NCBI GenBank assembly: GCA_964590575.1
Contig: CAZPWM010000078.1
Location: 1 to 14,768 of the forward strand
Origin: an uncultured archaeon
GTDB lineage: Archaea > Asgardarchaeota > Thorarchaeia > Thorarchaeales > Thorarchaeaceae
Direction: 5' to 3'
DNA: 14,768 bases
Positions 1 to 14,768 of this stretch are shown here, piece after piece. The translations under genes and the position numbers were made by a program. Numbering within the stretch: position 1 is the stretch's first letter; each line of letters starts with the position of its first letter. Below the pieces are notes generated by a model. That model made no database searches. It had not been told where the DNA came from and worked only from the letters and a program-made list of their open reading frames with translations.

Positions 1-638
1 TTGTCGACTCCACGGATGCATTACAGGCAGGTCAACTCACAGAAGAACAGGCAGTAGATGGCCTCAAGAGACTCTTGGAGAATGACGACTTTGTTGAGGG
101 TGCTAAGATTATAGAGGTCCGTGTCAATACAAACCCCGTGTGTAGAATATCAAACATTGACAGTCTGCTACAGCAGAGTCAATCCAGAGAGCCTCTTAGA
201 TGGACTCGTCGAATGAAGATCGGGTTTGTTGTGTCCCTTGTGACAACTCTTGGCGTCTATATCGCGATGATCGGTCTGCAATTGTGGGAACCCATTCGAT
301 CACTGTCTTGGCTTGTCATCGGCATTGCTTCCTGGATCTTGCTCTACTACCTCATTAAACAAAATTCCCCCACATTCTATAGAGTGATGTGGCCCTTGGG
401 ACACGCCTGCATCTTTGCAATGGGTTGGTTTATTCTGATAATACCCCTCGGGCCATTTTTTAGCTCTGTCTTCCCTCCCTCGCCCGACATCTCATACCGC
501 TTTTTCGCCGTATTCGTGTTTTGGATTGGTCTTGGGTCTTGTATGGTGATAGGTGGCATCCTGGGTGACCGCCTAGGAAAGAAACGGAACTACAGACCCT
601 ACATGTTGCAGACCGGTGAAGCAAAATGGAACGAATAA
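1..638 (+). CDS. Hypothetical membrane protein, 5'-partial; tandem paralog of 626..1399 (soluble head + ~4 TM)
   Basis: Frame is open from base 3 (VDSTDALQAGQLTEEQAVDGLKRLLENDDF...) and aligns ungapped with the next ORF (40/57 aa identical by hand count). The listed start at 75 is therefore internal. About four hydrophobic segments; tail GDRLGKKRNYRPYM. Confidence 0.88.
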   Translation, partial: VDSTDALQAGQLTEEQAVDGLKRLLENDDFVEGAKIIEVRVNTNPVCRISNIDSLLQQSQSREPLRWTRRMKIGFVVSLVTTLGVYIAMIGLQLWEPIRSLSWLVIGIASWILLYYLIKQNSPTFYRVMWPLGHACIFAMGWFILIIPLGPFFSSVFPPSPDISYRFFAVFVFWIGLGSCMVIGGILGDRLGKKRNYRPYMLQTGEAKWNE

Positions 639-1399
639 ATACACAGACCGTGTACGAGCTGGTCAAGGAGTGGACATTTCAGCCTTGGGATGGAACGCGA
701 TATAGTCACATCGTTGAAACACTATGGGATTCCATTGAGGCTTGTGGACTTATTGAAGGACCATTTGGTATGGCCATGACTCTGCTTGAGTCATATGTTG
801 TTGATTCCGCCGAGGAAGTAGACGCAGGATTGCTCAATATGAATCAGGCAGTAGAAGGTCTATTAACACTGTTGCAGAATGATGACTTTGCCAGGGGTGC
901 GAAAATCATAGAGGTCTCCGTCGAAACAAATCCAGTGTGCAGAATATCAAACATCGACAGTTTGTTGCAGAAAGATTGGCCAATCGGTCCTCAGAAACCT
1001 CAGTGGTGGAAACGAAGCGTTCGGAGTTACTGGCTTTCTGTGGGAGTCGTTTCCTTTGCCGTAATGGCCATCATCTACGTCATTCTGATTGGCTTTGGAA
1101 TACTGCCACCTGTACAGCTCTTCCTAGCCGTAGCAGTTGGCATTCCAATGTACGCAATGAGTTACTATATCCGTAAAGTGGCTACCAAGAGAATGTGGAG
1201 AACAGTGTTCATTATGCTTGGAGCTAGTGGTATAGGATTCTGGTGCTTGATAGTTCCTTCGACTTTCCTCTTCGCCCCAGTCATTCGATTGATTCCCTGG
1301 TGGATAGGAATGCCCCTTCTTACGATTCCATCTACAGTCATCGGAGCATTCATAGGCGACTGGATAGGCAAGCGTCGAGATTATCGACCTTACATGTGA
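626..1399 (+). CDS. Hypothetical membrane protein, 257 aa (~115-aa acidic soluble head + ~4 TM + GKRRDYRPYM tail)
   Basis: ATG preceded by GGTGA (615-619), 13-nt overlap with upstream paralog, clear paralogy. No known family recognised. Confidence 0.9.
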   Translation: MERINTQTVYELVKEWTFQPWDGTRYSHIVETLWDSIEACGLIEGPFGMAMTLLESYVVDSAEEVDAGLLNMNQAVEGLLTLLQNDDFARGAKIIEVSVETNPVCRISNIDSLLQKDWPIGPQKPQWWKRSVRSYWLSVGVVSFAVMAIIYVILIGFGILPPVQLFLAVAVGIPMYAMSYYIRKVATKRMWRTVFIMLGASGIGFWCLIVPSTFLFAPVIRLIPWWIGMPLLTIPSTVIGAFIGDWIGKRRDYRPYM

Positions 1400-1587: not shown

Positions 1588-2379
1588 CTACTCACTAAAC
1601 CAAATATACACTTCATCCACATAATCAGGATCTTGGAGTTCAAAATCAATATCGTAATCCGAGTATAGATAGAAATCGAGATCCTCAGAAGTATCCTTGT
1701 AGTAGTATTTGACTTCCAATTTGGTTGTGGTTTCTGACTCTATGTGAACCCCCGCGGAGAACGCCACTCCTTTTAGGCTTATTTCAAAACCCAGTGATGT
1801 ATAGTAGAGATTTGTCCATTCATACTCTAATAAATCGTAACCACTACAACCATGGTCAACAAGTCTATGATAGCTGTAATCTCCTGCAATACCTGTTCTA
1901 TCATCTGCCCATACTTCAAAGTTTTCTAAGTTGTCAAATCGTTTAATTCCTTTTCCATCCAGAGCCTCAGAATCCACTAGAATCGCTTTGTAAAATACTC
2001 TTCTTGGCGTTATGTAGCAATACACATCCCAAGTAAGTCTATACTCATAACAAATGACACAGCTCATCTGCTCATCATCTGGTGTTCCCCAGCCTTCGGT
2101 GTGCGCTAAGCTTGCATCAAAACCTCCGGTGGCATAATTTCCTAACCCTCCTCCGCCAAATTCCAAATGAACCGATGTAGTTCTAGACTTAGTTAAAAAC
2201 GCATAGCTTTCATTGCCAGGAGGGTCATAAAGTGCGAAAACAGGAATCCATGAGTCCTTAGTTTCCCTTCCAAGGTACTCAATCCATATAGCATCTCCTT
2301 GTTGAGCTGGGGTAAGAACGACCAATGACATAACAGCAAAGAGAACGAGTAGTTGAAGCGATCTCGCTTTAAGCTTCAT
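1588..2379 (-). CDS. Secreted hypothetical protein, ~263 aa, acidic, Tyr-rich, beta-rich
   Basis: Start moved to ATG 2379, which follows a GGAGG SD. N-terminus MKLKARSLQLLVLFAVMSLVVLTPAQQGDA looks like a Sec signal peptide. No C-terminal anchor. Confidence 0.85.
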   Translation of the reverse strand: MKLKARSLQLLVLFAVMSLVVLTPAQQGDAIWIEYLGRETKDSWIPVFALYDPPGNESYAFLTKSRTTSVHLEFGGGGLGNYATGGFDASLAHTEGWGTPDDEQMSCVICYEYRLTWDVYCYITPRRVFYKAILVDSEALDGKGIKRFDNLENFEVWADDRTGIAGDYSYHRLVDHGCSGYDLLEYEWTNLYYTSLGFEISLKGVAFSAGVHIESETTTKLEVKYYYKDTSEDLDFYLYSDYDIDFELQDPDYVDEVYIWFSE

Positions 2380-2403
2380 GAAACCTTTCCTCCAACCCAA
2401 CAA

Positions 2404-2500
2404 TCAGTTGCTTAATTATGTATAAATCATGTGTCAATTTGAATATACATACATTTGAAAGATAAAACATTCAATTTAAAAGTGCCTTCACGGTAATTAA
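2404..2500. promoter_or_regulatory. AT-rich divergent promoter region
   Basis: Lies between divergent genes; contains TATA-like TGTATAAA and ATTTAAAA and two copies of ATTTGAA. Confidence 0.45.
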
Positions 2501-2530
2501 TGAGAAAGGTGTTTCAAGTGGGTATGCATC

Positions 2531-3337
2531 TTGACGAGTAAGATAACTAGAACACACGCAGGGTTAGTGGCAGGCTTCTGGATCATATTCACCATCGTAG
2601 CCACTCTGGTCGGTCTATTAGTCTTGGACCTGGTCGAAGAGAGTCCCTGGCCGCTGGAAGACTCCATAACAGTTGAGCACACGGATGGAACAGCGGTGAG
2701 GAGTAGCTCTGACCGTGTCGAGGTCAGCATTGATGAGAACCCGGAGACCAACGTGACAACCATACTGACATCCATTGAGTTCTCGTTCAATGTCTCATCA
2801 CGCTCGCGACGTTTCAGCTTTGGGATGAACTCCACTCATTTCACGCCGGGGAGCAACTACATAATCAATGATTACAGGGAAGTGGTCCTTTATTCAACTA
2901 CCGACTCCAAGAGCTGGGATTTGCATTATGAACCTCCTGGAACCTGGATGGCAATAACTATTGGGTTCGAAAAAGAGTATCTCTTTAATGAGAGTAACCA
3001 GGAAGAGTTCACGTTCCATCTTGAATGGAACTCAACTTTGAGTCTTCTTAACATACTCAATCGGACCTCTGACTTCACTATTCTCATGCATTTCGCAATG
3101 AATCTTGAGGAGATGCTTGAGCCCTATATCCCGCTAGCAAGATTGTCACAAGTGTTGGCTACAGTCGGAATAGGGGGGGTTCTAGGTGTGATTTCAGTGC
3201 TCATACTGATGGACGACTATGGTGAGTCTCATAATATGGGGAAGTCAAGAGGTGGCGACAAAACCATTGCGAAACATCTTTCGAATCACGTAGTCGGTGA
3301 AGGTCCCCATCTGAGGTCAAAGTCTACGCCTTCTTAG
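2531..3337 (+). CDS. Hypothetical membrane-anchored protein (N-terminal TM, S/T/N-rich extracellular domain, C-terminal TM)
   Basis: 268-aa ORF with TTG start. Hydrophobic segments AGLVAGFWIIFTIVATLVGLLVL and VLATVGIGGVLGVISVLILM; many N-x-S/T sequons between them. Confidence 0.8.
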   Translation: MTSKITRTHAGLVAGFWIIFTIVATLVGLLVLDLVEESPWPLEDSITVEHTDGTAVRSSSDRVEVSIDENPETNVTTILTSIEFSFNVSSRSRRFSFGMNSTHFTPGSNYIINDYREVVLYSTTDSKSWDLHYEPPGTWMAITIGFEKEYLFNESNQEEFTFHLEWNSTLSLLNILNRTSDFTILMHFAMNLEEMLEPYIPLARLSQVLATVGIGGVLGVISVLILMDDYGESHNMGKSRGGDKTIAKHLSNHVVGEGPHLRSKSTPS

Positions 3338-3962: not shown

Positions 3963-4094
3963 ATGAGGGTGAGGATGACGAGAGATAATCATATTGTTGC
4001 GCTATTATCTGGTGCCATTAGTGTTACCTTAGTCATTCCAATTGCTATCAAGTATAAGTCAAGTGTTGAGGAAGCGAAACAATATGACCAGTAG
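3963..4094 (+). CDS. Small single-TM protein (43 aa; 39 aa if ATG 3975 is used)
   Basis: Hand translation MRVRMTRDNHIVALLSGAISVTLVIPIAIKYKSSVEEAKQYDQ*. Contains a 19-aa hydrophobic stretch followed by KYK. Stop overlaps the ATPase ATG (4084) by 11 nt. Confidence 0.55.
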   Translation: MRVRMTRDNHIVALLSGAISVTLVIPIAIKYKSSVEEAKQYDQ

Positions 4095-4854
4095 AAAAAT
4101 CGAGATAAAAACCAAAGGACTTTCCAAGTCTTTTGGAAGTGTCGTGGCACTCGATAACCTCGATCTAGAATTATTCACAGCCAGCAGGTTCGGATACATT
4201 GGACCTAACGGAGCTGGGAAGACGACCACCGTTCGAATACTCTCAGGGCTACTCAGACCAACAAGTGGTGATGCGACCGTCTGTGGCTTTGACATTCGCA
4301 AAGAAACAAATAGAATCAAAGCCGTGACTGGTTTGTTGCCTGAAACTCCAGGACTTTACTCAAAGTTGTCAGCTGTGGAGTTCCTCGAGTTCATCGGTGC
4401 TCTGTATCATATAAGCGATGAAGTCTTGGACTCTCGAATCAATAGGCTCCTCTCGATATTGGGTCTAGAGGGGAGACAGGACGACCTATTGGAATCATAT
4501 TCTTCTGGTATGAAACAGAAAGTTCTCGTGGCATCCACGCTCATCCACGAACCTCGATTGGTATTTCTCGATGAACCAACCTCTCGTCTTGACCCAGCAG
4601 TCAGTGCTCTGGTCAAGGACCTTATCCTGGCTCTAGCCAAGGAAACTGAAACGACGTTCTTCATTTGCACGCACATGACCGATTTTGCTGAAGATGTATG
4701 TGACGTTGTTGGCATACTCAACATGGGTAAATTGGTGGCCTTAGGCGCTCCCGAACAGATTGTAACTGACACTGGTGCCAAGGATCTTGAGGATGCATAT
4801 CTCAAGATTATTGGTGGTAAAATTGATAGAGAGAAGCTCCTTGATTGGAGGTAA
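4084..4854 (+). CDS. ABC transporter ATP-binding protein (DrrA/CcmA-like exporter ATPase)
   Basis: Walker A GPNGAGKTT, signature YSSGMKQK, Walker B LVFLDEP, H-loop CTH. Start placed at ATG 4084. Confidence 0.95.
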   Translation: MTSRKIEIKTKGLSKSFGSVVALDNLDLELFTASRFGYIGPNGAGKTTTVRILSGLLRPTSGDATVCGFDIRKETNRIKAVTGLLPETPGLYSKLSAVEFLEFIGALYHISDEVLDSRINRLLSILGLEGRQDDLLESYSSGMKQKVLVASTLIHEPRLVFLDEPTSRLDPAVSALVKDLILALAKETETTFFICTHMTDFAEDVCDVVGILNMGKLVALGAPEQIVTDTGAKDLEDAYLKIIGGKIDREKLLDWR

Positions 4855-4859
4855 GAGGT

Positions 4860-6518
4860 TTGACCCGACACTGGATGGTCATAGCGAAGACTGATTTTCT
4901 CGTATGGAGTTCTAAGGCGAAGGGCAAGAGAGCTCCAATCTTTGCAGGCATTCTCCTGACTGGTGTTTTATGGGCGTTCTACGTAGTCCCAGAGATTTGG
5001 CGATTCGTCATCAGTGGCAACCTGCCAATCTACTCCCTGTTGATGGTGGCACTGCCAGAACTCATTCGAATAGCCATGCTACTCTTGTGGATGCTTGTCT
5101 TGATCTACCCCATTTTATACGCGCTTCAGGAGATCAAGATAGGCCAGTGGGAGATAATCCTTAGCTGTGACGTTTCGACGAGGTCTCTGCTTGTGGGGAC
5201 TTTCGTGGGAAAGATACCCAGTTACGGACTGATGGTGTTGTTTCTCGCGCCTGTATTGATTTCGCCATTCATACTCGCATATCAAGTGACTCTTCTTGGT
5301 CAGATACTAATGTATAGTTCAATCCTGCTGGTCTCATTGTCGACACTGTGGATGTCCAACTTCGTCGCACTCGCAGTCCAGGCAAAGCTAGGAGAGTCGC
5401 GACGTGCAAAGGATCTGGGAAAGGCGCTCTCAATGGTGATTGGATTAGCTGCTGGTCTGCCAATCTACGCGCTGGTATACTTTGCCGGGCCTCTGACAGG
5501 CATTCTAGGGATGAATGTATTTCTTCTATTCCCTTTCATATGGGGTGCAGACATGACATCATGGGCGGCAATCCTGTTCAGTCCAAATGTCACTCCAGAG
5601 ATGCTCCCCCTCTTCAAAGCTGTTCTTGGTTTTGACATCCTGACTGATGTGCTGTTGCTATCTTTATTCACATTACTTCTCGTGGGTGTTGCGTTCAGAG
5701 CAACAGACAGAGTATTCACCTTTAGACTGGGAGTGAGAACTGAAACAGTCACAACTATTGTCCGGGAGAATGTTGTGATTCGCGGGGTTAGAAGGCTCTT
5801 CCCAGGACATTTTGGTGTTCTGGTGGTCACGAGTCTGAAAGACTTCTTCCGGAAGGCAGAGAATCTATCAAGACTTGGGTTTATGCTCATGATGACAACG
5901 GTCATGCCTCTTGTGCTGAATTTCTCATCACCGGAACCCCCCACTGATGATCCAATCTTTCGAGTACTCATGCTGATGATTCCTGGAGCGATGATGCTCA
6001 TGGTGGTCGGAACAATGACATTTGGTGGTGTAGGCTTCATTGAGAGCAAGGACCACCTTTGGATAATAAAAAGTGCACCTCACGGTTCGATTGAATTTGT
6101 GGAGGCGAAACTTGTCAGTTTCTTCATCACAGCTACGCCCATGGCACTGATACCAACTATTGTGGTAGGGCTACTAACGGGTCTTGAAGTGCAGTTCATC
6201 ATTCTAATGTTCATCTATGATTATTGTCTGTTATGCTGCTCAATCATGGTATCGGTTGGTGTAGTATCATTCAATCCCACCTTTGAGAACACTAAATCCC
6301 GCTCTTACATCTTGAACAGTCTTGCAACAGGACTCATCATCTTGAGTACACTAATTACCTCACTGTTAATCGGAGTCTTTTACTTCGGACCAGCATTACT
6401 GGAAGGTTTAGGTCTTTTGGGAAGCATTGTGCTACTCACAATCGTACCTCTGGGGATAATTGGGCCTCTTCTAAGCAGAATGGGTGCTAGACGTCTGGGG
6501 CATCCTAGCAAATCATAA
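4860..6518 (+). CDS. Large ABC exporter permease (~12 or more TM, two-halved)
   Basis: Directly follows the ATPase. Two permease-like halves (IAKTDF...WEIILS...GK and TSLKDF...LWIIKSAP...AK). TTG 4860 follows GGAGGT (4847-4852); alternative start 4845. Confidence 0.88.
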   Translation: MTRHWMVIAKTDFLVWSSKAKGKRAPIFAGILLTGVLWAFYVVPEIWRFVISGNLPIYSLLMVALPELIRIAMLLLWMLVLIYPILYALQEIKIGQWEIILSCDVSTRSLLVGTFVGKIPSYGLMVLFLAPVLISPFILAYQVTLLGQILMYSSILLVSLSTLWMSNFVALAVQAKLGESRRAKDLGKALSMVIGLAAGLPIYALVYFAGPLTGILGMNVFLLFPFIWGADMTSWAAILFSPNVTPEMLPLFKAVLGFDILTDVLLLSLFTLLLVGVAFRATDRVFTFRLGVRTETVTTIVRENVVIRGVRRLFPGHFGVLVVTSLKDFFRKAENLSRLGFMLMMTTVMPLVLNFSSPEPPTDDPIFRVLMLMIPGAMMLMVVGTMTFGGVGFIESKDHLWIIKSAPHGSIEFVEAKLVSFFITATPMALIPTIVVGLLTGLEVQFIILMFIYDYCLLCCSIMVSVGVVSFNPTFENTKSRSYILNSLATGLIILSTLITSLLIGVFYFGPALLEGLGLLGSIVLLTIVPLGIIGPLLSRMGARRLGHPSKS

Positions 6519-6621: not shown

Positions 6622-7128
6622 CTAGTTAATAGTAGATTGTATAGCCTTGTGGAATGACTGGCTCTTCTCTAGAATTTTAATTGGAACCATAAGCGCGATT
6701 CCAAGAAACATGGTTACCAACCCATAAGCAAACAACCCAGAATCGGGCGAAACAGGATCTACTTCAATTTTGTATTCTGCTGTTTCGTTGTGAGTTGGCG
6801 TAACAAGAACACCATACCAACCGGGTGAAAACGTTTCTACTATAGTTTCATAATAAAGGGTGTTCTCTGCAACATAGATAGGGCTCACGTTCTCCAGCGA
6901 TGCATCTCTTATAGCTCTCAGTATATCTTGCCCTGTCAGAACAAAAACAGTGAGTTCAGTCCCCTGTTCAGACGACACCACTAAATGAAAGCTACCGCTT
7001 GTTCGGAACATACAACCCTCGTAGTCGTCTAGATCAACATACGAGCCTATTCCGAAATTGTAGTAACTTAGTAAGGATGATGCGATGACAGCAATACCAA
7101 GAATGACCAATGTTCTAGCTAGTTTCAT
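6622..7128 (-). CDS. Hypothetical two-TM protein with beta-rich extracellular domain (ABC operon accessory)
   Basis: GGAGG SD, ATG 11 nt after the permease stop, hydrophobic helices at both ends. Confidence 0.85.
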   Translation of the reverse strand: MKLARTLVILGIAVIASSLLSYYNFGIGSYVDLDDYEGCMFRTSGSFHLVVSSEQGTELTVFVLTGQDILRAIRDASLENVSPIYVAENTLYYETIVETFSPGWYGVLVTPTHNETAEYKIEVDPVSPDSGLFAYGLVTMFLGIALMVPIKILEKSQSFHKAIQSTIN

Positions 7129-7139
7129 ATTTCATCCTC

Positions 7140-7955
7140 CTAAACTTCTATTTGCTCAAAGTATACAATACAAATCATCAGTAAAGAGATTGCAATCGCG
7201 ATTGTTCCGATAACATACATCGCTAGTTCGCTGAAGACAACATCCGTCACCCAATGGAAGTTGAAGAAATCATTGATAGGCGGCATCGGATTGAGTAGAT
7301 TCTCCAAAGGTGTGAATTCTTTTGGTAACAATTGCATCACTCCGATTCCCAACCAGAATGGGACTCCTATGAGCACTCCCACTAGAGACTTCTTGACCAA
7401 GAGTGCAATCAAGGTGGATGACGTTATGACTAGGAGCATGAAAGCCCACAATGCTCCCAGTATCAAAAACACATGATCAAAACGAGGAATTCCCGGACTA
7501 ATAATGCACACAGCTACAAACATTGACATGGATGTCATTAAACCAAACAGTCCGAGCGTAGCAACTACTCTGGTCAATAGTAATCTACTTCTTCCGATTG
7601 GGTAGGATAGCTGAGTCTGGAATGAACCATCCTCGAATCCCCTTGCTATGCTGAACATGACAAGTGTTGGCAGCATAAAAGCCACTATGCTAGCCAGCCC
7701 CAAAGCAGAGGTGGAGTAGACTGAAACTGCAGCTCCGCCAATTAGCTCAATATAGTGTTCATAAGCCTCAACAGCATTCCATGTAGGGTCGGATGAAATC
7801 CATATTCCTGGTCTAATATTGAATGTAGTGTTTTTCACTAGTGTGATGCACAAAAAGAGGACGAATGCCGCAATTGCCTCCAGAAGATTGTATCCAAAGG
7901 TGACCTCAATCTCAAAAGCTAAACCAGCCCAAATGTTACTGACCTTGTTCTTCAA
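7140..7955 (-). CDS. ABC-2 type exporter permease
   Basis: About 6 TM; motif SIARGFEDGSFQTQLSYPIGRSRLLLTR matches the ABC-2 E.GT...LS.P..R pattern. GGAGGT SD; overlaps the ATPase stop. Confidence 0.9.
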   Translation of the reverse strand: MKNKVSNIWAGLAFEIEVTFGYNLLEAIAAFVLFLCITLVKNTTFNIRPGIWISSDPTWNAVEAYEHYIELIGGAAVSVYSTSALGLASIVAFMLPTLVMFSIARGFEDGSFQTQLSYPIGRSRLLLTRVVATLGLFGLMTSMSMFVAVCIISPGIPRFDHVFLILGALWAFMLLVITSSTLIALLVKKSLVGVLIGVPFWLGIGVMQLLPKEFTPLENLLNPMPPINDFFNFHWVTDVVFSELAMYVIGTIAIAISLLMICIVYFEQIEV

Positions 7956-8871
7956 TTCTCATTACCTCCTTGTACGCATCCTCAAGTGTGCCCGCATGCT
8001 CGAATGCATAGACCCTAATCCCAAGCAACTTAGCAATCTCCTCTACTTTGGTCTGGACCACTTCCATTTTGCCTTCTTCAACTGTCACTGAAATTGTATT
8101 TGCTCCTGAAACGATTGCTTCAACAATTCCCGATACCTCTTTCAAAGCCCCAAAGAGAGCTTTAGAATCCGACGTGACAATTCTGAACCTGTATTTCGTA
8201 TGTTCATCGATAATATCAAGAACCGCCCCATTCTCCACAAGTTGTCCTGCTCTGATGAACGCTACTTTGTGACATGCTCGCTCCAACTCCGAGAGAATAT
8301 GAGATGAGATGAAAAACGAAACTCCCAGTTCTTGATGCAGTTTAATAATCAAACGAATAACCTCATCTCGTCCTAACACATCGAGGTTGGATGTTGGCTC
8401 ATCGAGGAACACCAGCTCAGGATTTCCTATCAGGGCTTGGGCAATTCCCAATCGTTGATGCATTCCAGCAGATAGATTACCAATCTTGCGACTACTTGCG
8501 TCTGAGAGACCCACAAATGATAGTAATTCAGTAGGTTCTCTACTTGAGCCATACAGTTTGCCAACTCTTGTGAGATATCTCTCAGCTGTCATATTTGTTG
8601 GAAACTTAGGACGCTCATGCAGAACGCCAACTCTCCTTCTGATTTTCAAAGATTCTTTGCAAGAATCATGGCCTAGAACTGATGCTGTACCTTGGTCAGG
8701 ACTGATCAGTCCAAGTAACGTACGAATCAGAGTGGTTTTTCCAGCACCATTTGGTCCAATGAGTCCGAATATACCAGGAAAAACCTCAAGGTCAAACCCG
8801 TCTAGGGCTTTGACTTGGCCAAATCTCTTGTGTAGGTCTGTCACCTGAATTATGGTCGAGCTATCTGACAT
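7936..8871 (-). CDS. ABC transporter ATP-binding protein (DrrA/BcrA-like, with C-terminal extension)
   Basis: Walker A GPNGAGKTT, signature LSAGMHQR, Walker B LVFLDEP, H-loop SSH. Start moved to ATG 8871 (MSDSSTII), since the longer start runs through the promoter. Confidence 0.95.
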   Translation of the reverse strand: MSDSSTIIQVTDLHKRFGQVKALDGFDLEVFPGIFGLIGPNGAGKTTLIRTLLGLISPDQGTASVLGHDSCKESLKIRRRVGVLHERPKFPTNMTAERYLTRVGKLYGSSREPTELLSFVGLSDASSRKIGNLSAGMHQRLGIAQALIGNPELVFLDEPTSNLDVLGRDEVIRLIIKLHQELGVSFFISSHILSELERACHKVAFIRAGQLVENGAVLDIIDEHTKYRFRIVTSDSKALFGALKEVSGIVEAIVSGANTISVTVEEGKMEVVQTKVEEIAKLLGIRVYAFEHAGTLEDAYKEVMRIEEQGQ

Positions 8872-8888
8872 TGTGATTCCCCGCACAC

Positions 8889-8942
8889 TATATATCGCTT
8901 TACATAGTATGTTATACGTAGTAGTATGCAAAACGATATATA
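8889..8942. promoter_or_regulatory. Symmetric divergent promoter/operator (18-18-18 inverted repeat)
   Basis: TATATATCGCTTTACATA (8889-8906) and TATGCAAAACGATATATA (8925-8942) are reverse complements at 16/18 positions. Each arm contains an outward-facing AAA.CGATATATA. Confidence 0.72.
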
Positions 8943-9000
8943 CATATTGGTCATTGATGTAGAAGTCCTGAGAGGTGTTATTGACTCCGGAGGTCACACT

Positions 9001-9378
9001 ATGTCAGAGGAAGTAAGGGCTGGAAGCCCAGAATTGGAGTACGAGAAATGGTCCGTCCAGATTAGACGGGGGGCTCTTTCCATGGCCATTCTTACAATCA
9101 TCCTAGATGGCGAGTCCTATGGCTATGATATAATGAAGAAACTGGGTCAGGAGGAATATTTGGCACTTCAGGTTGAACCTAGCACTACTTATCCTCTTCT
9201 TCGTAGACTTGAAGATAGGGGAATCCTTGAGGGAAAATGGTCAGACACCTCAGGCAAGAGACGACGGCTCTACTATATCACAAAAGGAGGGAGACTAATC
9301 CTACGCCAGATGGTTACTGCATGGCGAACCCTGAATGACCAACTCATGCAATTAGTGAAGGAGGCTGGTCTTGAGTGA
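9001..9378 (+). CDS. PadR-family transcriptional regulator
   Basis: Motifs QIRRGAL, YGYDI, STTYPLLRRLEDRG, W...GKRRRLYYITKGG and a C-terminal W helix. GGAGGT SD before ATG 9001. Confidence 0.95.
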   Translation: MSEEVRAGSPELEYEKWSVQIRRGALSMAILTIILDGESYGYDIMKKLGQEEYLALQVEPSTTYPLLRRLEDRGILEGKWSDTSGKRRRLYYITKGGRLILRQMVTAWRTLNDQLMQLVKEAGLE

Positions 9379-11126
9379 GCGAGGACCCGCTAACGATAAT
9401 CGAGGCGTATCTGGTTCATGTGAAAGTGCAATTACCGGAGGCCAAGGCTGACGTAATCATTACAGAGCTCCGTGGGTACATGATTGAGATGACTGAAGCG
9501 CTATCAGATGGAACTATGAACGCTACATCAGCGAAGAAAGTAGTTGCTAGGTTTGGAGCACCATCAGAGCTAGCTAAGGAATATAGCTCGGACTTGTCAG
9601 AAAGTGTCATGGAGGGGTTTGACCGGGAATTCGAGGAAGACTTACCAGACCAACAGGAAGATGTGTCGCCAGCTCGCTATACGACAACATTTCTCAAATT
9701 CGTCACAATCACCATGCTTTGGTTAGTCATTTGTTGGGCATCAGTCACTCCCTTTGCGTATTGGTGGATGGGTTCACTAGCTATTCTTGCACCAGTCCTC
9801 CAGTTTGGAATAGTGACGATTGCGTTCTCTGCACGTCTGCTAAGATTCAAGATTAAAAAAGTACAATTGAGAGATGTGATATTTGGAAACTGGTCGGGTT
9901 TTCAAAAGTGGGTCACGCTACCTGAGAATTTAGCAGTTGAAACCAATAGAGCAAAAGTCTTGGGTGACATTGGACTTACGATATTAACAGCACTTGGGTT
10001 TGTAGCATTCAATAATTACAGCGACGGTGCTTTTCTGATATTCTTTTCATTTCCAACGTGGTTATTCTTGTTGGCTCATCTTCATTATGCAATCCGCAGA
10101 ATTCGGAATTCTGATCCTGCTTCATTCATCAGACGAGAATATGTGGTGAACATCGGACTAGTACTGCTCCTTAACGTCACGATTGCGTGGGGCTTTTATC
10201 CATGGAGGATGGGACTTGCGGTGAATGTATTCCTTGTTTGGATTTCACTTGGTTACAGTATGCTCAATCTGTATCAGATAGTGGCGCGGATGCAAGACCT
10301 TTGGTTGGTGGCTGCAAAGATTCCAGACGGTTATTCTGAAAAATCATCAAAACTCTCACCAGAGGCAAAGCGCAAGATGCTAGATCAAACAAAGAGAACT
10401 GCTCTAAGAACTATCGGTGGAATAGGTGCAACGTTCTCTGCAATTGTTATCACTATACCTCTTATTCTGTTCATTACACAAACTAGCATCTCTTGGAGCC
10501 GATGGAATACGCATGGCATCTTCATAGTTTTATTCGCTTCATTCGCCGCATTAGTATCGATTGGATTAGCGTCTGGATATTTCGGAACGCGATACTATTT
10601 AATCCGGTCAAGAGGACACACATCAGTCTTTGGTAAACGAACCAGAGGAGAGGCTGTTTTTGACCTAATCATCGTAGGAGCAGCATTGTTCATTGTACTT
10701 TCTAGTTGGTCTTACTGGGCTGGACACCTCGTGAGCGAAACAATTTATCAGACTTCTGGAGCAAATCCCATGATTCGATTATTACTCGATACTGCAATTG
10801 TAGCATGGGGGCAGTTCTTGGTCATCGCAATAATAGCCCGTATAGCTGCGGACATTGGTAACCTCAGAGAGCATAATAGTAACTTCACGCAAGAGGCTAT
10901 GGCATTCTCTGGGGATTTATTCTTAATCGACGCGTTACTCATGACAGGAATTTACATCATGCTACTTACATACCTAGAATTATATCAACCAATTTTGAAT
11001 GAGATGTTTGCGATTCTGATGCTTTCTTATACAACTTTAATCTTCTTTGCATTTCAAAAGTCCACAGCAAGTATAAAGCTGAAATGGAAGAAAGAGTCTC
11101 ACCGTACTTATCAGGACAGGCAATAA
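9375..11126 (+). CDS. Multi-TM protein with N-terminal HAAS/DUF1700-like domain
   Basis: GTGA overlap with the PadR gene. N-terminus IEAYL...LP...IITELR...FGAPSELAKEY matches the HAAS pattern, followed by an acidic linker and ~10-11 TM. Confidence 0.85.
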   Translation: MSEDPLTIIEAYLVHVKVQLPEAKADVIITELRGYMIEMTEALSDGTMNATSAKKVVARFGAPSELAKEYSSDLSESVMEGFDREFEEDLPDQQEDVSPARYTTTFLKFVTITMLWLVICWASVTPFAYWWMGSLAILAPVLQFGIVTIAFSARLLRFKIKKVQLRDVIFGNWSGFQKWVTLPENLAVETNRAKVLGDIGLTILTALGFVAFNNYSDGAFLIFFSFPTWLFLLAHLHYAIRRIRNSDPASFIRREYVVNIGLVLLLNVTIAWGFYPWRMGLAVNVFLVWISLGYSMLNLYQIVARMQDLWLVAAKIPDGYSEKSSKLSPEAKRKMLDQTKRTALRTIGGIGATFSAIVITIPLILFITQTSISWSRWNTHGIFIVLFASFAALVSIGLASGYFGTRYYLIRSRGHTSVFGKRTRGEAVFDLIIVGAALFIVLSSWSYWAGHLVSETIYQTSGANPMIRLLLDTAIVAWGQFLVIAIIARIAADIGNLREHNSNFTQEAMAFSGDLFLIDALLMTGIYIMLLTYLELYQPILNEMFAILMLSYTTLIFFAFQKSTASIKLKWKKESHRTYQDRQ

Positions 11127-11132
11127 AGATTT

Positions 11133-11225
11133 TCAAGGGTAGCAGTTATTCAATATATCTGCACCTCCAGCTTCAAACGCTTTCTCTCAAATCTCAGCAA
11201 GCTTGCCAAACGATTCCTTTGACAT
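11133..11225 (-). pseudogene. Probable 5' remnant of a SnoaL/NTF2-like gene
   Basis: GAGGA SD, then MSKESFGKLAEI*EKAFEAGGADILNNCYP*. Resembles the W..AF..GD...L...Y.ED start of NTF2-like proteins, with TGA at the Trp position. Confidence 0.4.
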
Positions 11226-11370
11226 GGTGAGGTCCTCACATTATATCATGGTCTGTGTCGCTTGTTCTGAATGTTCTGTTGCCTTGGTAATTCATCAAAT
11301 ACAGACTGTAAACGCGCGTTTCTTCACATCTGTGGATATTCCTATAAGTTACGTTACGTGCTTCATACCC

Positions 11371-11628
11371 ATGGCCAGAAAGACCTATCGAGATGCCCAA
11401 GGATATCTCAGGTTCATTAACTCCGGAAAACTTGTCCATCGTTGGAAAGCAGAGAAAAAGCTGGGTAGAAGTCTCAAGCCTGGAGAAGTAGTCCATCATC
11501 AGAACAAGATCAAGGGGGATAATCGGTATGGTAATCTTAGGATATTCGATTCTCGCAAAGCACATCAAGCCCACCATATTAAAGAGGCATGGACACGAAC
11601 AAGACGAAGCAGAACTTTGAAACGCTGA
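11371..11628 (+). CDS. HNH endonuclease (HNH_3-like), 85 aa, free-standing
   Basis: GY...VHRWKAEKKLGRSLKPGEVVHHQNKIKGDNRYGNL...H...H matches the phage-type HNH consensus. CTATAAG about 25 nt upstream and no SD, so probably leaderless from ATG 11371. Confidence 0.88.
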   Translation: MARKTYRDAQGYLRFINSGKLVHRWKAEKKLGRSLKPGEVVHHQNKIKGDNRYGNLRIFDSRKAHQAHHIKEAWTRTRRSRTLKR

Positions 11629-11728: not shown

Positions 11729-12775
11729 GTGGCAGCTGAAGAATTCAACTCTGTTCCAAAGAAAGAACTTAGCACCTTTGAGAAGTATTTGCCAGTCTGG
11801 ATTGGTATCTGTATGATTCTGGGAATCGTTCTATCTTTACTGGTCCCAGAGTTAAGTGAAGCTATTAATTCATGGCAAATAGCAGGAATATCTGTCCCTA
11901 TTGGGATCTGTCTCTTCTTGATGATGTATCCAGCTATGTTAAACATCCAGGTTTCTGAGTTGAAGAAGCTTGGACGAAATCCAAAGCCCATTATCCTCAC
12001 ACTAGTATCGAATTGGATTGTTGCTCCAGTTGTAGGATTTACATTGGCTCAAACTTTTCTTCAAGGAAACGAGCAGCTAATTGTGGCGGTTATTCTATTA
12101 GCATCAAGCCCCTGTACAGCGATGGTATTGGTCTGGGGGTATCTTGCAGAGGGCAATCAAGAACAGAATGTAATTAATACGACTTTGAACACAATAACCA
12201 TCCTTGTCCTTTTCGCACCTCTAGTTGCATTGCTTACGGGAATCTCCAACATATCTATTGACCGGTTATTATTGGTCATTTCAGTTATGGTGTTTATCGG
12301 AATCCCTTTGGTGGTGGGAGGAGTCACAAGAAAATCACTTGTGAATTTGAAAGGAAACGATTGGTTCCAGAACAAGTATCGTCCAGCTGTAGGGAACTTA
12401 GCCCTCATAGCACTTCTAACTACATTGGTAGTGCTCTTTTCGCTAAATGGAATGGTGATGCTCGAACACCCAGACCTACTTGTACTCGTGTCAATCCCAC
12501 TTTTACTTGGATTTGCCATAGTAGTAGGTTACAATCTTCTCATAACACGTTTAGCTGGATTAGCCTATCGAGAGGCTACAATCACTGTCATAATCGGATC
12601 GTCAAGTCACTTCGAAATCGCCATTGCAACTGCGATCTCAATTTACGGAGTCGGGTCCATTGCAGCGCTCGGTACAACAATGGGTTTGTTTTGGGAAGTT
12701 CCAATAATGCTTGGACTAGTATACCTAGCTAAGTATTTACGAAAGAGAGAGTTCTGGACAGGTAAGCCTATGTGA
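11729..12775 (+). CDS. acr3: ACR3-family arsenite efflux transporter
   Basis: FEKYLPVWI, LFLMMYP, LVSNWIVAP, SPCTAMVLVW (conserved Cys), SSHFEIAIA and EVPIML motifs; ~10 TM. Confidence 0.95.
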   Translation: MAAEEFNSVPKKELSTFEKYLPVWIGICMILGIVLSLLVPELSEAINSWQIAGISVPIGICLFLMMYPAMLNIQVSELKKLGRNPKPIILTLVSNWIVAPVVGFTLAQTFLQGNEQLIVAVILLASSPCTAMVLVWGYLAEGNQEQNVINTTLNTITILVLFAPLVALLTGISNISIDRLLLVISVMVFIGIPLVVGGVTRKSLVNLKGNDWFQNKYRPAVGNLALIALLTTLVVLFSLNGMVMLEHPDLLVLVSIPLLLGFAIVVGYNLLITRLAGLAYREATITVIIGSSSHFEIAIATAISIYGVGSIAALGTTMGLFWEVPIMLGLVYLAKYLRKREFWTGKPM

Positions 12776-12788
12776 TGGAGGTCAATTA

Positions 12789-13085
12789 ATGCTAAATGAT
12801 AGATTAGTCACTTGGAGACTCGAGTTCCACAAAGCTTTGGCCAATCCAATCCGGCTTCAGATTGTAGATTTTCTTGCTGATGGTGAGCAATGCCAGTGCG
12901 ATATCTTTCCGAGATTTGGCTTTGCACAATCAACTATCTCGGCATATCTCACCAAATTAGTAAAAGCAGGGATTCTGAACTATCGAAGGGATGGCACTCG
13001 AAAAGTGTACAGTATCGCAAGTCCAGAAGTCATGAGCATTATCGAGAAGATACGGATTATCGCGGACAGTTACACATCCAGATAA
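12789..13085 (+). CDS. arsR: ArsR/SmtB-family metalloregulator
   Basis: KALANPIRLQI, EQCQCDI (ELCVCD-type site), QSTIS..L..L.KAGI and RRDG...Y motifs; GGAGGT SD; adjacent to acr3. Confidence 0.9.
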   Translation: MLNDRLVTWRLEFHKALANPIRLQIVDFLADGEQCQCDIFPRFGFAQSTISAYLTKLVKAGILNYRRDGTRKVYSIASPEVMSIIEKIRIIADSYTSR

Positions 13086-13097
13086 TGATTGAGAGAA

Positions 13098-13994
13098 TCA
13101 GGATTTCCCCTTCATCTCCGACTGCACGTAGGTTACTTTAGCAAAAATATTCTTGTCAACATGACTGTACGCATCTTTGACGTTTAATTCACGGAGATCA
13201 TAACCAAGCTTCTGGCACGCCCAGTCAATCCATGCTTCACGGGCTTCACGTGCAATTATGCTTGCAGCTGCAACAGCAATCTCATCTTCAGCCTTTGGAC
13301 GTTGTACCAACTCAATCCTACTGAGGTCGAGTTTCAATCTAAGAAGCGCTTCAGTTTTGACCCGAGCGAACTGGTCAATGACAATCTTGATGGGCTCTTT
13401 TCTGGCTTTAACAGTTTCATAGACTTCTGCTATTACCTTAGTATGCGCCCATGCTAACATATCGTTGAGGTTCTTTCCCTCTTTTCGGAATTCTTCAATT
13501 TGAGAGTTGAACTTTTCAGGAGAAATGAGTAACGATTCTACTTTGAGAGCATTCCTGCGCACAGTTTTGGAGAGTTCTGCTATTCGTACGGTAGACAAAC
13601 TCTTACTGTCCATAACACCGAGTGCCCTCAACATTGTGGTCTGTTCTGGAGTTAGAGCAACTGCAGCGACTGTCATTGGACCAAGCCACTCTCCTTTACC
13701 AGCCTCATCAGACCCAATGATCAAGGTCGTACCAGAAGATGAGTCCACCTCCAAGATTGCATTCTGAACTGCAGCTGCTGAATGAGGCCCATTGCTGACT
13801 ATCTTCCCACTTGTATATCCGATGATTGCCTCCCCAGCGAACATTATTCGGAAGGCTTCATATTCGCTTTTTGTAGCAAGATCAGACGACTCATTGGAGT
13901 CAAGAAGTCTTCTGTGAAGCTCCTCTATCTGTGCCGAGTCAATCTTGATTACATTTGGCTTCAATATATTCTCCCCAACATATCTCCTCGTCAA
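13098..13994 (-). CDS. rnhC: Ribonuclease HIII
   Basis: IGSDEAGKG..GP, GVMDSK, IDQF, KAE and VAAASIIAR motifs. N-terminal TBP-like domain (FRI...YTSGKIVSNG). Alternative start TTG 13964 after GGGGAG. Confidence 0.88.
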   Translation of the reverse strand: MTRRYVGENILKPNVIKIDSAQIEELHRRLLDSNESSDLATKSEYEAFRIMFAGEAIIGYTSGKIVSNGPHSAAAVQNAILEVDSSSGTTLIIGSDEAGKGEWLGPMTVAAVALTPEQTTMLRALGVMDSKSLSTVRIAELSKTVRRNALKVESLLISPEKFNSQIEEFRKEGKNLNDMLAWAHTKVIAEVYETVKARKEPIKIVIDQFARVKTEALLRLKLDLSRIELVQRPKAEDEIAVAAASIIAREAREAWIDWACQKLGYDLRELNVKDAYSHVDKNIFAKVTYVQSEMKGKS

Positions 13995-14020: not shown

Positions 14021-14768
14021 CTAGAATTTGTGAATCACCGTACTGAGTTCCTTTGAAGAATCATCAATCGATAAGACTCCATAGAACCCATTCATGACTG
14101 CGGAAATTACAACGCACCTTGTTCTGTTAACCAGAAATTCGTGATGCATGTGATAGTGCCCAGATAATGAGAGGGAAACCGGATTTTCTTCGAGGAAACT
14201 ATTGATTGCTCTGCTCCCTGTAGATACTCCTATGGAAAAACCAGGGACGATTCCGGGCTCATAAGGTGGAACATGCGAAAGCATAATCTGAATGGACGCT
14301 CCCTCAATCTGGGAAAATGCAGTCGCAAGAATCTCGTGTATCCTTTCCTCTGAGAGCTCGAAGGGACTGGTATATATATCCAAAGCAGAGAAGTCCGAAT
14401 CAGACCATTCTGTGACCACAAACTTACCGTTCTCGTAAGAGATACCAAATGTGCTTAGGGTTTCCATTGCTCGATTGTCAGGCGCTAAGCTTGATGTATC
14501 CTCAGTCTTGAAAAACTCACGGACCTCGGAAATGGTAATCGAAGTCTCTTGGATGCCTCCGACTCCGAAGAAACCGATGTCGTTCAACCTTTTTCCTTTA
14601 CAGTGAAGGTTTATTCCGAGTTCATCAAAAAATCCTCGTACTTCTGGGAGTGGTCCGTTACCAGGTATTGCGACCATCCAGTTACTTGCTTCTTTGATCT
14701 TAGTCAGATAATCAATCGATTGAGGGGAGAACTTCCTGAATGTCATCAAGTCACCCAAGAATAACACG
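14021..14768 (-). CDS. Calcineurin-like metallophosphoesterase, N-terminally partial
   Basis: LGDL, AIPGNG, LSHVPP and SGHYH motifs in order. The first DxH motif would lie beyond the window edge. Confidence 0.88.
   Translation of the reverse strand, partial: VLFLGDLMTFRKFSPQSIDYLTKIKEASNWMVAIPGNGPLPEVRGFFDELGINLHCKGKRLNDIGFFGVGGIQETSITISEVREFFKTEDTSSLAPDNRAMETLSTFGISYENGKFVVTEWSDSDFSALDIYTSPFELSEERIHEILATAFSQIEGASIQIMLSHVPPYEPGIVPGFSIGVSTGSRAINSFLEENPVSLSLSGHYHMHHEFLVNRTRCVVISAVMNGFYGVLSIDDSSKELSTVIHKF

Follow-up and report, generated by a model that had tools for sequence, protein, structure and literature searches.

Among described systems, the HAAS-PadR dyad comes closest in its logic to the genes considered here. 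In the part of PMC11237479 drawn on here, a stand-alone PadR-like winged helix-turn-helix (wHTH) protein is encoded beside a membrane protein, which has a cytoplasmic helical domain at its N-terminus joined to a range of multi-transmembrane (multi-TM) modules, including ones with four TM helices (4-TM); such pairs are put forward as an alternative to two-component systems. For ZAS anti-sigma factors, the section of PMC3961337 used here gives the motif HxxxCxxC; for the Tfx HTH, the section used of PMC10570040 describes a fold like that of sigma-70 region 4 (EnfR/TON_1525, PDB 8HNO); and for WhiB-like (Wbl) [4Fe-4S] proteins, the excerpt used of PMC5462746 gives the pattern Cys-X14-22-Cys-X2-Cys-X5-Cys. 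We analysed the first 14,768 bases (the window) of contig C78 (CAZPWM010000078.1) of a Thorarchaeota metagenome-assembled genome (MAG) of 3.4 Mb in 194 contigs. The window opens on two tandem genes, A and B, ancient paralogs that encode a membrane protein of Asgard archaea without a family name; in related MAGs they follow a gene for an HTH protein. The best-supported reading, which we rate at about even odds, is that the upstream HTH regulator has A and B as its membrane partners or sensors.

The HTH protein has 156 amino acids (aa), with a weakly matched Tfx/sigma-4-like HTH and a C-terminal H-x3-C-x2-C-x5-C motif that presumably binds metal. Over 66 matches it is 49-92% identical, with C107, C110 and C116 invariant and H103 nearly so. 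The family has no name in Pfam or NCBIfam; apart from Tfx the protein matched only HTH_23 (E 0.004), and no PadR, no Sigma70 (E up to 10) and no Whib match was obtained. As in the HAAS-PadR dyad, so far as the cited part describes it, A and B join a cytoplasmic N-terminal helical domain (the head) to a multi-TM module, and an HTH gene is adjacent; unlike in that dyad, the HTH protein is not PadR but Tfx/sigma-4-like, and it carries a Cys/His motif. The head itself is not HAAS by profile: Pfam showed no HAAS (PF22564, DUF1700) in B and 29 head sequences at E up to 10, and hhalign gave a probability of 1.9% for the head profile against a HAAS profile of 19 Thorarchaeota sequences. It also keeps a GP pair (G45, P46) and not the HAAS GxP of the kinked helix. 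A canonical HAAS-PadR copy is present elsewhere in the window (8926-11126, plus strand), where PadR (8926-9378; PF03551, E 5e-16) and a HAAS multi-TM protein (9375-11126; PF22564, E 8e-5) overlap at stop and start; HAAS was found in 41 of the 41 genomes of the family that were searched, with four copies in this genome.

With pairs of extracytoplasmic function (ECF) sigma factors and membrane anti-sigma factors, as partly described in the source on ZAS, the locus shares a co-transcribed pair of a DNA-binding and a membrane-spanning protein, a cytoplasmic N-terminal segment followed by a TM helix, and HxxxCxxC in the pair. However, the host is an archaeon without sigma factors, the HTH protein lacks the Sigma70 match, and HxxxCxxC is located on the DNA-binding protein here but on the anti-sigma partner in ZAS, according to the cited section. 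The likeness to Tfx, within what the cited section covers, lies in an N-terminal basic HTH of the sigma-70 region-4 type (isoelectric point, pI, 11.6) followed by a near-neutral C half (pI 6.8), whereas the head of the membrane protein has a pI of 4.1. The HTH protein nevertheless scores far under the Tfx family cut-off, its C-terminal domain is unmatched, and neither a membrane partner nor a Cys motif is described for Tfx in the section used of PMC10570040. As to Wbl proteins, measured against the excerpted pattern, the C-x2-C-x5-C spacing recurs in HTH paralogs and a fourth Cys lies 27 residues upstream in 21 of 24, but this first-Cys spacing is outside 14-22, the residue is not invariant in the A/B-linked subfamily, and Whib is not matched. 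Judged from sequence, the likeness of H-x3-C-x2-C-x5-C to ZAS and Wbl is one of spacing only. A literature search for a Tfx-like or membrane-anchored transcription factor system in Asgard archaea or Thorarchaeota found no description.

Gene A, the A-class paralog, lies at 3..638 on the plus strand (open reading frame list, BLASTP); 211 aa are present, the contig start truncates the gene at its 5' end, and full-length A-class orthologs mostly have 260-276 aa. Gene B, the B-class paralog, is complete (626..1399, plus strand, 257 aa). The two proteins are 38% identical over 213 columns (BLASTP, E 3e-39) and have the same three-part build, consisting of an acidic head of about 115 residues ending in NPVCRIS, a 4-TM core and a basic tail. 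The cytoplasmic head of B comprises residues 1-115 (626..970), modelled by AlphaFold2 (AF2) as helices and short strands; in A, the C-terminal half of the head is present (3..176), aligning with B residues 59-116. At the end of the head, adjoining the membrane, is the cysteine motif TNPVCRISNIDSLLQ (129..173 in A and 926..970 in B), in which C105 of B is 27 residues ahead of TM1. The membrane core occupies 210..545 in A (about four TM helices) and 1019..1336 in B (model helices 132-156, 163-185, 188-215 and 225-250). The conserved cytoplasmic tail, with the consensus G-D-x-x-G-K-[KR]-R-x-Y-R-P-Y-M, follows at 546..605 in A (VIGGILGDRLGKKRNYRPYM) and at 1337..1396 in B (VIGAFIGDWIGKRRDYRPYM, with G240-x3-G244-x3-G248).

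In a pairwise MAFFT alignment (B numbering), A and B are identical at 40 of 57 positions in the head (59-115), 3 of 13 in the linker (116-131), 24 of 98 aligned positions in the TM core (132-237) and 13 of 20 in the tail (238-257). The two copies of TNPVCRISNIDSLLQ differ at 7 of 45 nucleotides (nt), and all seven differences are synonymous because the peptides of A and B are identical there. The counts given in the initial annotation for head, tail and motif therefore stand, as do its remark that the core barely aligns and the 13-nt overlap of the genes. In fact, synonymous sites are near or at saturation everywhere, with a proportion of synonymous differences of 0.62 in the head, 0.78 in the TM region and 0.87 in the tail. 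The duplication is therefore old, and the common head of A and B is no recent copy.

The AF2 model of B has a mean predicted local distance difference test (pLDDT) score of 81.8, and that of the head alone a pLDDT of 87.4 and a predicted TM-score of 0.81. The head model contains helices 9-16, 23-39, 46-66, 72-83 and 86-92, short strands and then helix 110-115, after which the four TM helices follow. Lys and Arg residues of B number four before TM1, five in the TM2-3 loop and four in the tail, and zero and one in the outer loops, which are 6 and 9 residues long. By the positive-inside rule and the model helices, B is predicted to have both termini inside, and therefore all of its conserved non-membrane parts (head, TM2-3 loop and tail) would be cytoplasmic. 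The TM helices carry no charged residues except D245 at the cytoplasmic end of TM4, and G240, G244 and G248 of the tail are invariant or nearly so in 68 sequences.

The initial annotation recognised no family, and none emerged from searches of Pfam, NCBIfam, PADLOC, PHROGs and PDB folds at significance. The best Pfam match was CPP1-like for A (E 0.013, 15.5 bits against a cut-off of 28.4) and M_C for B (E 0.21); NCBIfam, PADLOC and PHROGs gave nothing significant for the head-4TM proteins, and neither the HTH protein nor the neighbouring genes had a match in PADLOC or PHROGs. Foldseek against pdb returned no matches at E <= 0.001 for either the full-length B model or the head model, so that the head matches no well-known family by this search. 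With VIA, the best Z was 7.3 for full-length B, to helical hairpins only, and 6.6 for the head (3faj_A, root-mean-square deviation 3.5, 88 aligned), a level common for helical bundles. The best ESM Atlas score, 0.77, was under the level counted as a lead. Matches of the head profile to PDB sequences (HEAT, influenza HA2 and epsin helices, E 0.002-0.03) were weak and were set aside as compositional.

A word-indexed search found 105 relatives of B and 126 of A, with no Pfam domain recorded. Those with names are all called 'hypothetical' and all come from Candidatus Thorarchaeota or Promethearchaeota MAGs, except for one marine sediment metagenome entry. From these two lists plus P0107, we compiled 149 full-length sequences (245-340 aa, no two identical). 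By their membrane cores they divide into three discrete classes and one singleton: class B (82 sequences, identity within the class 0.62 in the core and 0.67 in the head), class A (58 sequences, 0.66 and 0.76) and class C (8 sequences, 0.81 and 0.79). Between classes the core identity is 0.21-0.28 while that of the head is 0.64-0.73, and the heads form one pool (0.64-0.79 overall). The constant head and tail with a differing core, first noticed in this one pair, is thus a family-wide property. On the other hand, the likeness to receptor or immunity arrays that had been suggested does not hold, as the core is steady among orthologs (0.62-0.81 within classes; 0.58 and 0.75 in two ortholog comparisons) and is therefore not hypervariable. 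Divergence is uniform inside each class, contrary to the initial annotation, and only between classes is it concentrated in the core. The sequences indicate that the membrane core was remodelled between classes and then kept.

Class signatures are also seen in the heads within the genus, with two mosaics, L011_A (first 35 residues B-like) and L013_B (A-like head), which by their sequences point to occasional exchange between copies. Ongoing gene conversion between the heads of A and B was considered and rejected, since head identity is 0.61 within the same locus versus 0.59 across loci (6 loci). Each locus has one or two copies, and one contig of 54,436 bases carries three relatives. An exhaustive phmmer search of 1.84 billion representatives gave 40 matches, including stand-alone 4-TM proteins (about 130-170 aa) and stand-alone heads (about 110 aa). 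The family profile matched 55 of 400 genomes of the phylum. Only the window's family (f1) has full-length forms, in 24 of 85 genomes, and in 10 of the 27 genomes of the window's genus; 4-TM-only forms, mainly in family f22 (25 of 135 genomes), are there without head and Cys; and heads alone are found in G327 and G328. The idea that a single head was fused independently to each of three older 4-TM families was rejected, because all 47 scored stand-alone 4-TM sequences matched the B-class core hidden Markov model best; B would thus be nearest to the stand-alone form, and A and C further from it, in a test that is biased by most of these sequences having been found with B as the query. At L035:1675-2929 and L036:8107-8907, Cys-less stand-alone heads are located beside 86-101 aa proteins with two CxxC pairs (zinc-ribbon-like) in place of the HTH protein. 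A 2086-aa protein with 16 HYR_4C repeats (P0111) matched B residues 22-56 in 14 stretches (phmmer, E 1e-15), which is probably a compositional or repeat effect.

The order HTH gene, A, B is fixed in Thorarchaeota MAGs (NCBI locus tags ACTSSE_18170, ACTSSE_18175 and ACTSSE_18180, in this order), and the HTH gene is directly upstream of the first family gene at 13 of the 20 distinct loci with enough upstream sequence. The initial annotation held that an array may continue to the left of the window. Because the window begins at base 1 of C78, this impression is a contig-end effect. Extending the search leftward did yield a third piece on contig C67 (G000:C67:3-656(-)), which encodes the N-terminal 218 residues of an A-type gene; it is preceded by the 156/159-aa HTH gene and not by an array. 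With one or two copies per locus and the HTH gene as the left boundary, a growing array is not found. The last 318 nt of the C67 piece align with the window's first 318 nt, with 291 of 318 identical, and because of these mismatches the two contig ends represent different molecules. The closest relative (L004 = L016) has a single locus with the HTH gene, A and B, collinear with C67 (84% nt) and with the window (89% nt). The simplest reading is that C67 and the window are one operon broken by strain variation, and the missing 5' part of A likely lies at the end of C67. The relatives G352 and G364, however, do carry a second HTH-linked copy.

The genes of the operon are joined by overlapping junctions. 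The HTH gene and the first family gene share the same 13 nt, ATGGATCGAATAG, on C67 and at L011, L012, L015, L018 and L021, which suggests translational coupling of the two genes. The A/B junction (623..644, with the ATG of B at 626) is a copy of the HTH/first-gene junction (AAATGGAnCGAATAnATACA), with 20 of 22 nt identical to that on C67, and the same junction occurs in relatives. The duplicated unit therefore started within the HTH gene, at its 3' end. The 13-nt overlap of A and B (626-638) is peculiar to this genome. In all five relatives checked (L016, L011, L019, L020 and L014), A ends at YRPYML*, 14 nt ahead of the ATG of B; here the stop codon has been lost (within 604-638), the TAG/TAA of the relatives after YRPYML being CAG. 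As a result of this read-through, A has an extension of 10 residues, LQTGEAKWNE (606..638 with the stop), that terminates at the relic of the HTH gene's stop. At L017/L025 (G373:C27), the HTH gene is missing and its last codons (..WKWIE*) remain ahead of the ATG of the family gene, suggesting a recent deletion.

The pairing of this HTH family with membrane proteins extends beyond A and B. The HTH family is present in 105 of 400 genomes (72/85 in f1, 12/22 in f11, 16/19 in f14 and 0/135 in f22), with up to eight copies per genome; its absence from f22 coincides with the head-less, Cys-less 4-TM proteins of that family. At all 24 of the hand-picked HTH-paralog loci, a downstream gene overlaps the HTH gene at its end or starts at most 6 nt from it, if the first ATG/GTG/TTG in frame is counted as the start. 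Of these downstream genes, 23 encode proteins with 1-8 predicted TM helices and unrelated architectures, including one with NosD/beta-helix domains and one with bPH_2, and of the 24th only part of the sequence was covered. In 23 of the 24 partners there is a single N-terminal Cys motif of the type [AVIF]-C-[PRQKL]-x-x-P, about 20 residues before TM1 (e.g. RVCPLPP, ACRIPKK), to be compared with the NPVCRIS Cys of the head. C-x2-C-x5-C is found in all 24 HTH paralogs and H-x3-C-x2-C-x5-C in 23, and the sole paralog without the His, on contig C96, is also the sole one whose partner lacks the Cys. That locus (L041; G000:C96:374-1615 (-), 1682-3093 (+)) has a distant HTH paralog (26% identity, CxxCx5C, no His at -4), then a 244-aa 2-TM protein with bPH_2, and is divergent to an ABC ATPase and permease resembling window 4042-6518 by eye. 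In the head family itself, 20 distinct loci were judged, with duplicates merged and five loci cut by contig ends set aside. Both the Cys and the HTH gene are present at 13 loci, the Cys without the HTH gene at three, the HTH gene without the Cys at none, and neither at four (Fisher p 0.007, an overstated significance, since kinship makes the genomes non-independent).

The sequences show the paralogy, the three core classes and their within-class conservation, the operon with its overlapping junctions, and the pairing of HTH proteins with Cys-motif membrane proteins. An HTH/A/B dyad is favoured by the operon, its junctions and this pairing, and further by the co-occurrence of Cys and HTH gene in the head family, by the opposite charges of the head (pI 4.1) and the HTH half (pI 11.6), by the cytoplasmic side predicted for head, TM2-3 loop and tail, and by the lack of the HTH family in f22, where the 4-TM proteins stand alone. 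In such a dyad, A and B would hold the HTH regulator at the membrane or release it. The common head with its Cys motif would be the docking side for the regulator, and the 4-TM core may be the part in which A and B differ, in what is sensed or in the assembly partner. Our confidence stays evenly balanced because we infer the binding from sequence alone, as we do the role that the metal site would have and the signal. The 'signalling module' of the initial annotation is thus plausible as a regulator-membrane partner pair, not as a specificity array.

Several observations weigh against a membrane-tethered regulator. Three loci (L017/L025, L007 and L029) have retained the Cys motif although no HTH gene precedes the family gene. 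The HTH protein has its own His and three or four Cys, so that the Cys of a partner is not needed for the metal site, and past the Cys the head motif (VCRISN, before a helix) bears just a loose resemblance to the proline-rich motif of the other partners (CPLPPGP). It may also be that the HTH protein, encoded ahead of membrane genes, does no more than regulate its own operon. The HTH assignment is itself weak, as the match to TIGR00721 (Tfx) has an E of 0.017 and 15 bits against a cut-off of 60.25 and covers residues 11-57 only, and the best PDB match of the HTH profile, EnfR (8hno_A, E 0.009), covers residues 7-57, the HTH only. In addition, the 24 HTH-paralog loci came from 11 genomes and were not a random sample, being drawn from multi-copy genomes plus one or two loci from several others, and the TM helices were counted with a custom hydropathy script.

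A wider proposal is speculative, and we consider it unlikely in its entirety. According to it, the locus would belong to a large undescribed family of Asgard signalling dyads in Thorarchaeota and neighbouring families, in which a membrane sensor anchors, via its single juxtamembrane Cys, a sigma-4/Tfx-like regulator with a His/Cys3-4 metal centre (Fe-S or Zn). This Cys might complete or touch the metal site, and release would follow a redox or conformational change. The system would be a functional counterpart of ECF sigma/ZAS pairs without detectable sequence kinship, and A and B would be two sensor classes for one regulator.

Of the alternatives to a regulator-membrane partner pair, the one that survives best, although we rate it as rather unlikely, is a small membrane assembly, homo- or hetero-oligomeric, with A and B as its subunits (a channel, a pore or a membrane-stress protein, for instance), in which the head gates or assembles and the HTH protein regulates the operon without contact. 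The 4-TM module does exist alone, in proteins of 130-170 aa often with two or three copies nearby, and these keep the cytoplasm-facing WW[KR] before TM1, YYIR after TM2 and a terminal G-x3-G-x3-G-K-[KR]-R. Helices that oligomerise or form channels often contain glycine zippers, G240, G244 and G248 are the near-invariant residues here, and heteromers would be a natural fit for cores that differ by class beside a common tail and zipper. However, an oligomer leaves unexplained both the Cys motif of 23 of the 24 unrelated membrane partners and the occurrence of Cys-less heads without an HTH neighbour. Inside the membrane the helices are uncharged apart from D245, and no channel fold was matched, the best VIA hit (Z 7.3) being to hairpins.

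It is quite improbable that the locus is an accessory conflict or addiction module, with the HTH protein as antitoxin or sensor and small membrane-damaging effectors. Such a module would fit the patchy occurrence (10/27 genomes of the genus, 24/85 of the family), the overlapping genes with the HTH gene first, and the many matches on short contigs that often break inside these genes; contig breaks are, however, expected wherever paralogs have near-identical stretches. Moreover, each core class is conserved across genera, the PADLOC and PHROGs searches gave nothing for A, B, the HTH protein or the neighbours, and other partners of the HTH family are large proteins, one having NosD/beta-helix between its two predicted TM helices, which is not toxin-like. 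A constant module with a rapidly varying membrane part, as in a receptor- or immunity-like array possibly extending further, is very improbable: the alike heads and tails with very different cores and the mosaic head exchange (L011_A, L013_B) recall one, but just three discrete, conserved core classes in 149 sequences, one or two copies per locus bounded by the HTH gene, and outer loops so tiny that they offer little surface for external recognition speak otherwise, and by the sequences compared, within-class conservation largely refutes a diversifying array.

The remainder of the window bears other genes. Next to B are a 271-aa protein (1588-2403, minus strand) with an N-terminal hydrophobic stretch, signal-peptide-like by eye, and a 268-aa protein (2531-3337, plus strand) with N- and C-terminal hydrophobic stretches, neither with a family match. 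These two genes have no counterpart at related loci, and a conserved link of A and B to them was therefore rejected. They are followed by an ABC module on the plus strand (4042-6518), with an ATPase (4042-4854) and a 557-aa permease without Pfam match, and another on the minus strand (6622-8997), with an ATPase (7936-8997), an ABC-2-like permease (7140-7955) and a 168-aa protein (6622-7128). ABC transporter genes are also near family genes in L028 and L030/L009, and in L030/L009 the module beside the family gene is the minus-strand one. Further along are an HNH_3 endonuclease reading frame (11203-11628, plus strand), an SBF-family transporter followed by an ArsR-type HTH (11729-13085, plus strand), an RNase HII-like protein extended by about 90 residues at its N-terminus (13098-13994, minus strand) and a metallophosphoesterase cut by the window end (14021-14767, minus strand).

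Asgard archaea are the closest known archaeal relatives of eukaryotes, and their signal transduction is poorly charted. If the dyad model fails, the head-4TM proteins would still be a clear example of paralogs in which divergence surged in one domain. If it holds, this locus would be one instance of a widespread pairing of regulator and membrane partner. The model gives a testable docking motif, Cys105 in NPVCRIS, and the two or three membrane-core classes on one common head provide a natural experiment.

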